From a virus, in the IMG/VR virus record IMGVR_UViG_3300027782_000054, positions 31,175 through 95,174 of that record: 64,000 bases of DNA; one strand, given 5' to 3'. Position 1 is the stretch's first letter; each line of letters opens with the position of its first letter. Of this stretch, positions 9,038-45,418 are shown piece after piece. Under the pieces are notes generated by a model. It worked only from the letters and a program-made list of their open reading frames with translations, did no database searches and had not been told where the DNA came from. A program made the translations under genes and the position numbers.

Positions 9038-12000
9038 ATGACTCTCTTTAATCTTGTTAAAGTAAAAACAACTACTACTGGGTCAGGCACAATATCTCTT
9101 GGCGATACCGTAACTGGCTATATTAGCTTTATTGCCGCTGGCGTTCAAAATGAAGATATTGTTACCTATGGCATCACTGACGGAACAAGCCGTGAGGTAG
9201 GAACTGGTGTTTATAGCTCAATTTCACCAACTTTAACAAGAAATGTCATAAATTCTACTAGTGGTAACCAGCCCATCAACCTAAGTGGTAAAGCCGTTGT
9301 CTTCTTGACTGCAATTAATGTCAATGTCGCTGACAAAATTGGCTCCACAACACAAATTTTTGAATCTGCTGTCTCTGCTCCGACAATTATTGCCTCAGGA
9401 ACAGAAGGATCTTCTGCAGAATCACGTTATATAGGAGGTACAGTATCTGGATCTCCTGTAATTGGTACATTTAAAGTTGGAGATTTTGTTATCTCCCAGG
9501 ATGGTCATACTTATGTTTGTACTGCTGCTGGATCTCCCGGCACTTGGTCATCATCTGTAGGAGCCACAGGCGTCACAGGCCCAATCGGAGTCACAGGAGC
9601 TACAGGCGTTAATGGAGTCACAGGAACCACAGGAGTAACAGGTACAACCGGCATAACAGGTGTAACTGGTCCACAGGGTACGACTGGCGTTACCGGAGTA
9701 ACCGGAGTCCAGGGAATAACAGGAAATACAGGCCCAATCGGTGAGACAGGGCCAACTGGTATTCAAGGTGAAACTGGTGTACATGGTATTACTGGTGTAA
9801 CAGGGGTCACTGGCCCTGCCGGTACAACTGGTCCTACTGGACCAGCAGTTGCTTGGTATTTTAGAGGCGCTTGGGTTAATGGAATTGATTACGATCCTGG
9901 TGATCTTGTTACATATAGTGGATCTCTTTATTACACAGCAACTGGTGTTTACTCTTCTTACTACCCAGGTTATCCTGGAGTGGACTGGGTTCTTGCAGCA
10001 CAAGTTGGAGCAACAGGTCCAACTGGTGGTACAGGTGGAACAGGCGCTCAAGGTACTCAGGGTAATAATGGTGAGACAGGAGTAACTGGTGCAACTGGCC
10101 CAACTGGTGTCCAGGGGATAACTGGAGTAACCGGGATTACTGGTGTTACAGGTGTACAGGGTATTACAGGTATTACCGGAGTAACCGGAGTAACCGGATT
10201 TACTGGTGTGACAGGAGTGACCGGCCCACAAGGGATTACCGGTATTACTGGCGTGACAGGAGTGCAGGGTATAACTGGAGTAACAGGGGTAACTGGAGTA
10301 ACAGGAGCTACTGGCCCTGCCGGTACACAGAACGCGCACAACTCAGTTGTTGCTGCTACTGTTGCTACCTTACCTAATTCACCTTCTTATACAGCAGGCT
10401 CTACAGGAGCAGATGGTGGTTTTGGAGTCGGAGCTAGATTTGATGCAACGGCAAATGCTATTCTTGCAATAGATGGAGTTCAGCCTGCGTCAGGAACAAG
10501 AGTCCTTGTTCAGACTCAGACAACTCCCCAAAATAATGGTATTTATACAGTTTCAAATCCTGGTACAGCTGGTACACATTGGCGCTTAACAAGAGCTTCA
10601 GATTATGATAATCATATTGCAGAGCAGGTTGAGCCAGGAGATTATGTATTTATTACCGGGGGAGCTACTCTTGGAAATTCGACAGCAGTTCAATATCAAA
10701 CTGGCTCAGGTACTAATGGCAGCATCATTATTGGTACTAACCCCATCAACTTTGCTCCAGCTGGTGGAGTTGGCGCTACCGGTGTACAAGGTGTTACAGG
10801 ATCTACTGGTGCTGGTGGCGCATTAGGTTATTACGGTATATTCTACGATACAGATAACCATTATATTACTAATCCACTCATTGCTAATCAGCTAGGTATC
10901 AATACTGTTGATGAAGCTAATGGGGTAACTCTTATCAGCGGAACAGCGTTAAGAATGGATAACGCAGGAACATATAATATTACGTTCTCCATTCAGTTGG
11001 CGAATAGCGATAAAGATGCTACAGATGTAAGAGTTTGGTTTAGACAGAATAATGTAGATATACCATTCTCAACTAACGTAATTGCTGTTCCTGGTAATCG
11101 CCCCGGACTTAATGGTCAAATTATTGGAACATGCAATAGAATTCAAACATTCGCTAAAAATGATATACTTACAGTTTGGTGGCAAGGTGGTCTAACAACA
11201 GTATTCACAGAAACAATCCCTGGAGGAACTGCTCCTGTTACTCCTATATCTCCAAGCCTCAGTGTTTCTGTCCATCAGATCATATATACGATTGAAGGAC
11301 CAACCGGTGTTACTGGTGCAACAGGCCCGCAGGGTGTAACAGGAGTAACCGGAGTTACCGGCGTGACCGGAGTAAGTACGACGGGTGTAACTGGCGTTAC
11401 CGGTGTAACTGGTGTAACCGGAGTCACTGGTCTAATAGGACTCACTGGTGCCACGGGAATTCAGGGCATTACAGGAATCACCGGAGTTACTGGATCTACT
11501 GGCCCACAAGGAATTGAGTGGAAGAATGCTTGGTCATCTTCTACTGCATATGTAGTCCATGATGCAGTTTCATATAGCGGCAGTTCATATATCGCCATCG
11601 CCCCAGGAACAAATAGCCCACCACCAGATAATGGTCACTGGGATACTTTGTCAGAAAAAGGTATAACAGGAGCAACCGGAGCTACAGGTCCGACTGGTAT
11701 CCAGGGTACAACTGGTACAACAGGTACGACAGGCGTAACAGGTAATACAGGTGGAACCGGCGGAACCGGTGGTACTGGTGGTACAGGAGAGGTCGGTGAG
11801 ACTGGCGTCAAGGGTAGCACTGGTGTTACGGGAGTTACTGGTGTTACGGGAGTTACTGGTGTTACTGGCCCCACTGGTGGTACAGGTGGGACAGGTGGTA
11901 CCGGAGCGCAAGGTGATCAAGGTACAACCGGAGTAACAGGCGTAACTGGAGTCACTGGCGTTACAGGCCCAATTGGTGTTACTGGCCCTCTAGGAATAAC

Positions 12001-44865: not shown

Positions 44866-45418
44866 TGAAATTTATGAAAAGGTAGAAGAGTCAAGTCACG
44901 AAACAGCTTTCAATCGTGATCAAGCTAGAATATTCTATAGCATTATTAATCTAAATAAGCCTAAGGTTGTTGTTGAAATTGGTGTTCAATTTGGACGTTC
45001 TGCGACTGTCTTAGCAGAGCTACAAAAGGTTCATGGGTATGATCTTCATTTGATTGATGGTTGGATTGAAGAGGTTTCAAGCAGTGCAAGAGAGCATTTC
45101 AAAAATCAAACCGAGAAGCATGATTGGAGTTTTACCTTTTATCCTGTTAATTCTGATATTGCTATTGATGATTTAAAAAAGAATATTGATGAGATTGATT
45201 TCATCCACATTGATGGTGGTCATGAATATGAAGAAGTTAAATCTGACATCCTTCTCTATACTCCACTTGTAAAGAGTGGCGGATTCGTTGTCTTTGATGA
45301 CTATGGTCATGACTCTCTCCCTGGTGTATTTCAGGCTTGTGAAGAAGTCATGACTCCAGATAAATTTGAATTCATCGGTAGATATGCAAATAAAACTGGT
45401 GTGTACAAAAAACTATAA
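44852..45418 (+). CDS. Class I SAM O-methyltransferase (Methyltransf_24)
   Basis: VVEIGVQFGRS, DFIHIDGGHEYE.V..D and GG.VVFDDY motifs. Confidence 0.85.
   Translation: MRLFDEIYEKVEESSHETAFNRDQARIFYSIINLNKPKVVVEIGVQFGRSATVLAELQKVHGYDLHLIDGWIEEVSSSAREHFKNQTEKHDWSFTFYPVNSDIAIDDLKKNIDEIDFIHIDGGHEYEEVKSDILLYTPLVKSGGFVVFDDYGHDSLPGVFQACEEVMTPDKFEFIGRYANKTGVYKKL

Follow-up and report, generated by a model that had tools for sequence, protein, structure and literature searches.

The stretch of DNA analysed here (the window) was 64,000 bp long and corresponded to bases 31175-95174 of the linear 95,174-bp viral contig IMGVR_UViG_3300027782_000054, the record of an uncultured freshwater phage. The GC content of the window was about 40%, and the CheckV completeness of the 95-kb record was 60%. 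In the region 9038-45418, in which all genes were co-directional, the window carried two collagen-like fibre genes (col1 and col2), a glycosyltransferase (GT) gene directly behind col2 (GT4a), further genes of a fibre block, and a ten-gene operon of predicted sugar synthesis, transfer and methylation genes. The two collagen genes and GT4a were located as follows:

9038-14944, + strand: col1, collagen-like fibre of 1968 aa (Pfam Collagen, E=1.4e-85)
22050-23885, + strand: col2, collagen-like fibre of 611 aa (Pfam Collagen, E=2.3e-20)
23939-24991, + strand: GT4a (P0016), GT4 glycosyltransferase (Glycos_transf_1, PF00534, 53.1 bits; cut-off 26.4)

Triplets were counted in Gly-X-Y runs of at least 5. 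The col1 protein contained 13 runs with 339 triplets, and Thr occupied the Y position in 247 of them; the X position was Val in 108 and Pro in only 47. The col2 protein contained 76 triplets with Thr at Y in 53. Together they held 300 Thr at Y, about 72% of the triplets and far above chance, in agreement with a preliminary description of this DNA, which had reported two Gly-X-Thr collagens with hundreds of Thr at Y. Both proteins had long unbroken Gly-X-Y tracts matching the Collagen model (PF01391), for which a triple helix is predicted. The rise of the triple helix is 0.286 nm per residue; calculated with this value, the tracts of col1 would sum to about 290 nm of triple helix.

The layout of col1 comprised an N-terminal anchor domain, the 13 tracts, a CBM5/12 domain, two copies of a "mid" domain of about 120 aa, and a C-terminal globular domain. 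The CBM5/12 was a Pfam match at residues 831-856, and a second CBM-like insert near residues 271-323 was a by-eye call only; col1 also held a domain known from virion surface proteins. Comparison of col1 with col2 showed identities of 49% in the N-terminal domain of about 125 aa, 50-72% in the mid domain and 61% in the C-terminal domain. Because the N-terminal domain was also present in a tail-fibre-like protein of the same block, and because the collagens carried globular domains including CBM5/12, col1 and col2 are probably long tail or baseplate fibres mounted through a common anchor domain, not a coat. The "glycocalyx" or "giant-virus-like coat" of the preliminary description went beyond the data. 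The globular domains, CBM5/12 among them, suggest a binding role for the collagens.

GT4a began 54 nt past col2 and stopped 70 nt before the gene of a 3631-aa repeat protein, which confirmed the GT4 described earlier within the fibre block. The EX7E motif (E257...E265) was invariant in 30 relatives of the family, and 3461 proteins belonged to the family at E<1e-20. Among GenBank phages, GT4a relatives were confined to cyanophages and four other phage records. In Synechococcus phage S-CBWM1, the relative lay directly 3' of a "tail fiber protein" that was a collagen of 67 triplets. In the T4-like S-CAM7/ACG-2014f group, which is unrelated to S-CBWM1, it lay after two collagen-like genes (216 and 50 triplets) in which Thr was the commonest residue at Y.

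A sample of 84 IMG/VR loci with GT4a relatives was used for neighbourhood analysis. Loci were testable when at least 5 kb was available upstream (43 loci) or downstream (41 loci), and a collagen open reading frame (ORF) was counted if it had at least 20 triplets and ended within 5 kb upstream of the GT4. A collagen ORF was found upstream of the GT4a relative in 41 of the 43 testable loci, eight of them ending within 60 nt of it, and downstream in only 3 of 41. Thr occupied Y in 61% of the 5898 triplets of these ORFs. When the loci, whose GC contents ranged from 38 to 68%, were clustered, 28 of 30 testable clusters kept the pairing at 90% identity and all 14 testable ones did so at 60%; since the clusters at both levels kept it, the pairing was not one lineage counted repeatedly. 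On GTDB contigs, full-length GT4a relatives had a Thr-rich collagen ORF in the locus in 17 of 26 cases.

In the control with distant GT4 enzymes of bacterial genomes, a collagen ORF was present in 1 of 54 loci and upstream in 0 of 44 testable ones. A second baseline of 80 viral loci, picked by means of P0013, a protein of the operon (1.29 Mb in total), gave a collagen ORF in one. In the reverse search by the mid domain of the fibres, the domain lay inside a collagen ORF in 77 of 79 loci, and a GT4 followed within 6 kb downstream in 14 of 30 testable cases. The forward and reverse counts therefore showed that GT4a is nearly always accompanied by a collagen gene, and that about half of such fibres have a GT4 nearby. 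These results support a functional tie of GT4a to Gly-X-Thr collagen fibres, and O-glycosylation of the fibres by GT4a is likely. The linkage was seen in gene neighbourhoods; from it we infer which residue accepts the sugar, which sugar is donated and how the fibre is affected.

Some related cassettes held additional enzymes. In 11 IMG/VR loci, a GT25-family enzyme (Pfam E=1.4e-11) lay between the collagen gene and the GT4 (L022 at 3786-6385, L019, L023, L024, L035, L038, L044, L046, L047, L054 and L063). These cassettes consisted of a Gly-X-Thr collagen, a GT25 of 191 aa and a GT4 with gaps of 13-39 nt, and the next gene in L022 matched the SU10 adaptor family. GT25 is the CAZy family of the animal collagen galactosyltransferases. 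In the cultured phage S-CAM7 (L008:4078-11574), the baseplate/tail-fibre module contained two collagen-like genes annotated as "hypothetical proteins", followed by the GT4, a second GT-like gene with a weak match, and a PF13640 2-oxoglutarate (2OG)-Fe(II) oxygenase; the group may represent a more complete set of genes for collagen modification.

A near relative of the phage, with a mosaic fibre block, was found on metagenome contig Ga0194048_10001572 (L264, 575-7729) by a metagenome scan with the collar protein of the fibre block, in which the other matches were mostly distant collar domains. The relative kept the order col2-like gene, GT4a, giant protein. Identities were 99.7% for GT4a, 94.5% for the giant protein, 94% for the col2 mid domain and 68% for the col2 N-terminal domain. 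A gene with a collar domain was inserted between col2 and GT4a, and the contig was cut inside the giant gene, before the operon. The contrasting identities and the inserted collar gene suggest recent recombination within the fibre genes.

The operon spanned 37341-45418, with a distance of 40 nt between the end of the fibre block and its first gene, and its ten genes were tightly packed or overlapping. A ten-gene operon directly after the tail-collar gene had been claimed before, and the tenth gene proved to be a DUF4254 ORF of 69 aa. The promoter and genes were:

37305-37333, + strand: sigma-70 promoter (TTGACA, 17-nt spacer, TATAAT, with TG), 12/12 consensus matches and extended -10
37341-38039, + strand: GT-A-like protein, sub-threshold GT2 match (22.9 bits; Pfam cut-off 27), relatives in 13 of 80 module loci
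38024-39328, + strand: GT4b glycosyltransferase, 434 aa (43.9 bits)
39325-40137, + strand: GT2 glycosyltransferase, 270 aa (53.7 bits)
40134-41099, + strand: Gmd, GDP-mannose 4,6-dehydratase family (Pfam GDP_Man_Dehyd, 328 bits, full length)
41099-41308, + strand: DUF4254 protein, 69 aa, translationally coupled to Gmd and the C-methyltransferase through overlapping start/stop codons
41305-42555, + strand: TylCIII-type NDP-hexose C-methyltransferase with zinc-ribbon, S-adenosylmethionine methyltransferase and C-terminal domains
42530-43486, + strand: P0013, glycosyltransferase of GT-B (GT4-like) fold by predicted structure (confidence score pLDDT 93), largely viral family, used as module marker
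43479-44243, + strand: P0014, short GT9-like (heptosyltransferase-fold) protein by predicted structure (pLDDT 91)
44236-44865, + strand: FkbM-family methyltransferase (family match)
44852-45418, + strand: Methyltransf_24 / CmcI- and rhamnosyl-O-methyltransferase-like methyltransferase (family match)

The strong sigma70 promoter of the preliminary description was fully borne out. The -10 element ended 7 nt before the ATG at 37341; 37305-37341 left no room for a Shine-Dalgarno sequence, and the operon mRNA may therefore be leaderless. The promoter type was also considered as a clue to timing and was discarded, because an equally perfect sigma-70 promoter preceded the portal gene.

The family assignments of the preliminary description were mostly recovered. 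Of its two GT2 enzymes, the one at 39325-40137 stood, while the one at 37341-38039 fell below the cut-off. Gmd, the C-methyltransferase and the two further methyltransferases were recovered as family matches, whereas the "O-" in the O-methylation assigned to the latter came from family names only. Gmd scored 319 bits with the NCBIfam equivalog TIGR01472, under the cut-off of 415, and was 47% identical to the annotated Gmd of Synechococcus phage DSL-LC02. The C-methyltransferase had the three-part architecture of the TylCIII type, with PF08421 (48.6 bits), PF13489 (53.7 bits) and PF08484 (154.5 bits) all above their cut-offs, and also matched Methyltransf_13, _23 and _14. DUF4254 adjoined the module in 11 other viral loci (L107, L109, L110, L122, L131, L152-L154, L159, L164 and L169).

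Pfam, NCBIfam and PDB sequence searches with P0013 and P0014 gave no match. Structures predicted with alignments of relatives gave both proteins GT-B folds, which agreed with the two further GT-like proteins noticed earlier. The best structural matches of P0014 were Veillonella GT9, TibC and WaaC, with TM-scores of 0.52-0.60 to GT9 enzymes including TibC. P0014 and 35 relatives had no Pfam or NCBIfam match, so the likeness to BAHT (TibC/Aah) or GT9 proteins was one of fold and not of sequence family. A scan that covered the nine enzymes of the operon showed no membrane-length hydrophobic segment; the maximum Kyte-Doolittle mean over 19 residues was 1.54. Within the 60%-complete record, the operon had no flippase, polymerase or initiating phosphoglycosyl transferase, and hence not the components of a Wzx/Wzy- or ABC-dependent locus.

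No GenBank phage matched the operon in a megablast search, and the C-methyltransferase as sole query found no relative in IMG/VR. With an alignment of P0013 relatives, 80 IMG/VR loci of the module were found, in which relatives of the C-methyltransferase (60 loci), Gmd (47), FkbM (26), the GT-A-like protein (13) and DUF4254 (11) were present. A collagen gene lay within 10 kb in only one of the 80 loci, which argues against an action of the operon on collagen. The co-occurrence of Gly-X-Thr collagen with gmd and the C-methyltransferase among relatives, which the preliminary description had proposed as a check, was thus not seen as a rule. Among ten large module-bearing contigs, eight had no run of three Gly-X-Thr triplets; the module genomes free of such runs included one of 338 kb that had terminal repeats and was rated 100% complete, and another that was 94% complete. 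The same run pattern had 130 matches in the record of the present phage. Within 8 kb of the 84 GT4a loci, no clear relative of an operon gene was found, and there was one weak Methyltransf_24 match (25% identity, L011).

The single collagen-bearing locus and the complete or near-complete genomes without Gly-X-Thr tracts showed that the module does not need collagen. The Gmd/C-methyltransferase/GT-B/FkbM module is, by sequence comparison, real, conserved and separate from collagen. It was also present in giant-virus bins (GVMAG), namely at L103, L115, L151, L158, L161, L168, L170, L172 and L176, and is therefore common to large phages and eukaryotic giant viruses. Of all module loci, L172 alone had Gly-X-Thr collagen ORFs.

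Among GenBank phages, relatives of the C-methyltransferase and of P0013 were found together in one alone, the freshwater Synechococcus phage DSL-LC02. The order of its operon was Gmd, C-methyltransferase, GDP-fucose synthase, GT, P0013-like GT, FkbM and six more GT-type genes, and the core order was that of the present operon. At the matching position it had a 4-ketoreductase, which was not found in the 60%-complete record of the present phage. The DSL-LC02 operon sat among high-light-inducible, ferredoxin and peroxiredoxin genes, outside the tail module; no GT4a was present, and a Gly-X-Thr gene lay about 50 kb away.

We favour, with moderate confidence, the explanation that two separate sugar systems lie side by side in this phage, GT4a acting on the collagen fibres and the operon acting independently. 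Its best-supported part is the glycosylation of the Gly-X-Thr fibres by GT4a. This soluble GT-B enzyme would belong to a GT4 subfamily that is carried by viruses and serves collagen-like fibres only. It would most likely transfer a sugar to the hydroxyl of the Y-position Thr in the tracts of col2, and probably of col1, and would do so in the cytoplasm, ahead of fibre attachment to the virion. The sugars could stand in for hydroxyproline by stabilising and hydrating a proline-poor triple helix, and could also give the fibre a glycan surface. The operon would be an independent, mobile viral module. Gmd is expected to produce GDP-4-keto-6-deoxymannose, which the TylCIII-type enzyme would C-methylate, at C3 by analogy; the five soluble GT-fold proteins would then build an oligosaccharide that the two methyltransferases cap. 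Judged by its protein families, the operon would thus encode a viral pathway of its own that yields a 6-deoxyhexose glycan with C- and O-methylation. The acceptor of this glycan could be the collagen fibres, another virion protein or a host glycan. The position of the operon after the fibre block makes a virion protein plausible as acceptor, possibly the same fibres.

The explanation nearest to the preliminary description, in which GT4a and the whole operon form one pathway, the collagen fibres receive from it a branched, methylated 6-deoxyhexose glycan, and the virion gains a glycan coat, is given a modest chance. It accounts for the co-direction of the genes in the region and for the 40 nt between fibre block and operon. 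The enzymes are all soluble and are not accompanied by a flippase, polymerase or lipid-carrier initiating transferase, which would fit direct glycosylation of protein in the cytoplasm; GT4a could start the glycan with a first sugar, and extension could fall to the five other GT-fold proteins. DSL-LC02, with its related operon, has a Gly-X-Thr gene elsewhere in the genome. However, collagen was near module relatives in only that one locus, genomes with the module and without Gly-X-Thr exist, and the GT4a loci had no clear relative of an operon gene. In addition, the operon has its own promoter, and the DSL-LC02 copy lies among non-structural genes. The claim that the phage glycosylates its own fibres was supported for GT4a by the 41 of 43 loci and 14 of 14 clusters, and was not supported for the glycan of the operon. 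An equally modest chance is given to a different division, in which GT4a alone concerns the fibres and the infected host has an envelope glycan (lipopolysaccharide (LPS), capsule, S-layer or cell-wall glycan) remodelled by the operon, for instance as a bar to superinfection or to keep progeny off debris. Clusters of phage glycosyltransferases are usually read in this way (PMC7029224, PMC10202952), and the reading agrees with the auxiliary genes around the DSL-LC02 operon and with the independence of the module from collagen; the closest pathway with Gmd and a TylCIII-type enzyme, an in-silico proposal, makes the LPS sugar virenose in Coxiella (PMC3539893). Against it, the operon contains no transmembrane protein, flippase, polymerase or initiating phosphoglycosyl transferase, so remodelling would depend fully on the export machinery of the host. 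The operon also follows the tail-fibre block directly, and the family occurs on giant-virus contigs, whose hosts have no such envelopes.

It is unlikely, in our estimate, that the collagens are unglycosylated, with Thr at Y stabilising the helix through hydration and GT4a acting on another protein of the fibre module, a host receptor or a small molecule. Unglycosylated collagens of bacteria often carry Thr at Y (PMC8968730), half of the related fibres lack a nearby GT4, and GT4 acceptors are diverse; yet the adjacency is directional and tight (upstream of GT4a, often by 60 nt or less) and specific to the GT4a subfamily, and GT25 and 2OG oxygenase, families with collagen-modifying members, join the same cassettes. 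Action of the glycosyltransferases on phage DNA against restriction, as in T-even phages, is very improbable. The phage has a deoxynucleoside monophosphate (dNMP) kinase and several nucleotide-metabolism genes, and the P0013 model resembles the T4 DNA alpha-glucosyltransferase, among many GT-B enzymes. Nevertheless, the thymidylate synthase was ThyX (PF02511) and not a ThyA-type hydroxymethylase as in the T-even phages, and no hydroxymethyl-pyrimidine pathway was found in the 60%-complete record. The presence of dCMP deaminase and thymidine kinase indicates ordinary thymine, and with ThyX it makes DNA glycosylation unlikely. Pathways that make C- and O-methylated deoxyhexoses are not known from DNA glycosylation systems.

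A wider proposal is put forward only tentatively: many aquatic and soil phages would carry a Thr-rich collagen, then a GT4, and sometimes GT25 or a 2OG oxygenase, as a cassette that O-glycosylates Thr at Y, glycosyl-Thr replacing hydroxyproline, and in the present phage the second module would add C- and O-methylated 6-deoxyhexoses, giving a fibre glycan sheath. If true, many tailed phages would possess a post-translational system that has not been described before and that parallels the collagen glycosylation of animals and giant viruses. Several points weigh against the favoured explanation. The evidence on GT4a, here and in the relatives, consists of gene neighbourhood, and about half of the fibres with the mid domain had no GT4 nearby. 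Nothing in the GT4a sequence marks a protein acceptor, in a family with diverse acceptors. Thr is the commonest Y residue in bacterial collagens generally (PMC8968730) and by itself is thus a weak sign of glycosylation. As to the operon, collagen was absent from 79 of the 80 module loci and from the two complete or near-complete genomes, and neither a 4-ketoreductase nor an epimerase was found in the 60%-complete record.

The pairing of GT4 and collagen is a variant of known virion and collagen glycosylation systems. BclA of the exosporium (Bacillus anthracis/cereus, Clostridioides difficile) resembles col1 and col2 in its Gly-X-Thr filaments and globular C-terminal domain, and its collagen region is said, after work by Daubenspeck in 2004, to carry O-linked oligosaccharides including deoxy and methylated sugars. 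BclA is known to be glycosylated (PMC8968730). It was the only non-animal PDB sequence match of col2 (1wck), through the repeat alone. However, BclA is a cellular spore-surface protein and not part of a virion, it has no homology to the phage fibres outside the repeat, no link of the GT4a family to BclA loci was found, and the phage fibres are multi-domain proteins of up to 1968 aa.

Mimivirus resembles the present phage in having virus-encoded collagen-like proteins together with an enzyme that glycosylates them (L230), a role for which GT4a is the candidate in the phage. In giant viruses, separate virus-encoded clusters make rare, partly methylated sugars for the surface fibrils, and the GT domain of L230 resembles GLT25D1 (PMC9614988). 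L230 hydroxylates Lys and glucosylates the hydroxylysine through its GT25-like domain, whereas the candidate acceptor in the phage is Thr and the enzyme a GT4; GT25 was absent from the cassette of the present phage and present only in some related cassettes. According to the passages on Freeman et al. 2023 in PMC12619734 and PMC13313380, glycosyltransferases and methyltransferases of mycobacteriophages modify the structural proteins of their own virions; the glycans described there are at the C-termini of capsid and tail-tube subunits and not on collagen repeats. The TibC-type heptosyltransferases share the GT9 fold with P0014, but the P0014 family was not linked to collagen. In chlorovirus PBCV-1, a virus Gmd, soluble glycosyltransferases and a methyltransferase build glycans containing methylated deoxyhexoses on a virion protein without the secretory machinery of the host (reviewed in PMC9614988). 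PBCV-1, however, is a eukaryotic virus with N-linked glycans on its major capsid protein, with no collagen and no C-methyltransferase.

The proposed route to virenose (6-deoxy-3-C-methyl-hexose) of Coxiella burnetii LPS uses Gmd, a TylCIII-type C-methyltransferase and a GDP-fucose-synthase-like reductase (PMC3539893). DSL-LC02 has exactly this trio, and the present phage has the first two. The route is an in-silico proposal for an LPS sugar, and the present record differed from it in the reductase/epimerase step, for which no gene was found.

No paper tying phage collagen-like fibres to a phage glycosyltransferase was found in the literature search. Papers that name both explain the enzymes otherwise, and phage glycosyltransferases are usually read as protecting DNA or modifying the host surface (PMC7029224, PMC10202952); the abundant GT4a family (more than 3400 relatives at E<1e-20) tracks collagen-like fibre genes with hardly an exception. 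This tracking points to glycosylation of the phages' own host-recognition fibres as a common and overlooked process. If true, this would bear on the stabilisation of proline-poor triple helices, on the protease resistance of fibres and their sticking to or slipping through host glycan layers, on the recognition of phages by antibodies, and on the making of recombinant phage fibres and bacterial collagens. The Gmd/C-methyltransferase module of large phages and giant viruses is a second unexplained viral sugar pathway.

The remaining genes of the fibre block were as follows:

14967-22007, + strand: eight paralogues of about 250-265 aa with weak matches to a phage depolymerase C-terminal beta-sandwich, and an ORF of 108 aa (15914-16240) without family match
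25061-35956, + strand: repeat protein of 3631 aa, no Pfam or PHROG family match, fibre role only putative
36002-36424, + strand: tail-fibre-like protein of 140 aa with the N-terminal domain of about 125 aa common to col1 and col2 (39-54% identity)
36440-36772, + strand: ORF of 110 aa, paralogue of the 108-aa ORF at 15914-16240 (42% identity), no family match
36777-37301, + strand: phage tail collar domain protein (76 bits), last gene of the fibre block

The array of eight paralogues sat between col1 and col2 and was outside the glycosylation argument. The 3631-aa protein consisted of repeats of about 57 aa and took up 11% of the contig; it was directly 3' of GT4a both here and in L264. The N-terminal domain occurred at 9038-9412, 22050-22436 and 36002-36380, presumably as a single docking site for alternative fibres, and relatives of it also headed non-collagen proteins with a Gly_rich_2 domain (P0004). 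The 108- and 110-aa paralogues each came after a gene of the fibre module and may be fibre chaperones or adaptors.

No GenBank phage was close to the present phage at the DNA level. The first 32 kb of the contig contained genes of ribonucleotide reductase, DnaB, primase, a PolA-type polymerase, a UvsX-like recombinase, the large terminase and the portal. The portal shared 38-42% identity with its counterparts in large actinophage myoviruses (Rhodococcus phage Finch, Gordonia phages and Cluster C mycobacteriophages). A WhiB-like protein, which might have hinted at the host, was sought by motif and not found. Genes for a major capsid protein, a sheath or a tube were not recognised anywhere in the 95-kb record, which fits the completeness estimate. 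The IMG/VR relatives of the phage, found by means of the portal (L003-L006), stopped short of the region, and the best of them, L005, ended just before the position of the collagen. Nucleotide-metabolism genes were dense at 1492-6219, 45629-46294 and 56218-56634 and comprised the dNMP kinase, an IMPDH/GMP-reductase family protein, ThyX, thymidine kinase and dCMP deaminase.

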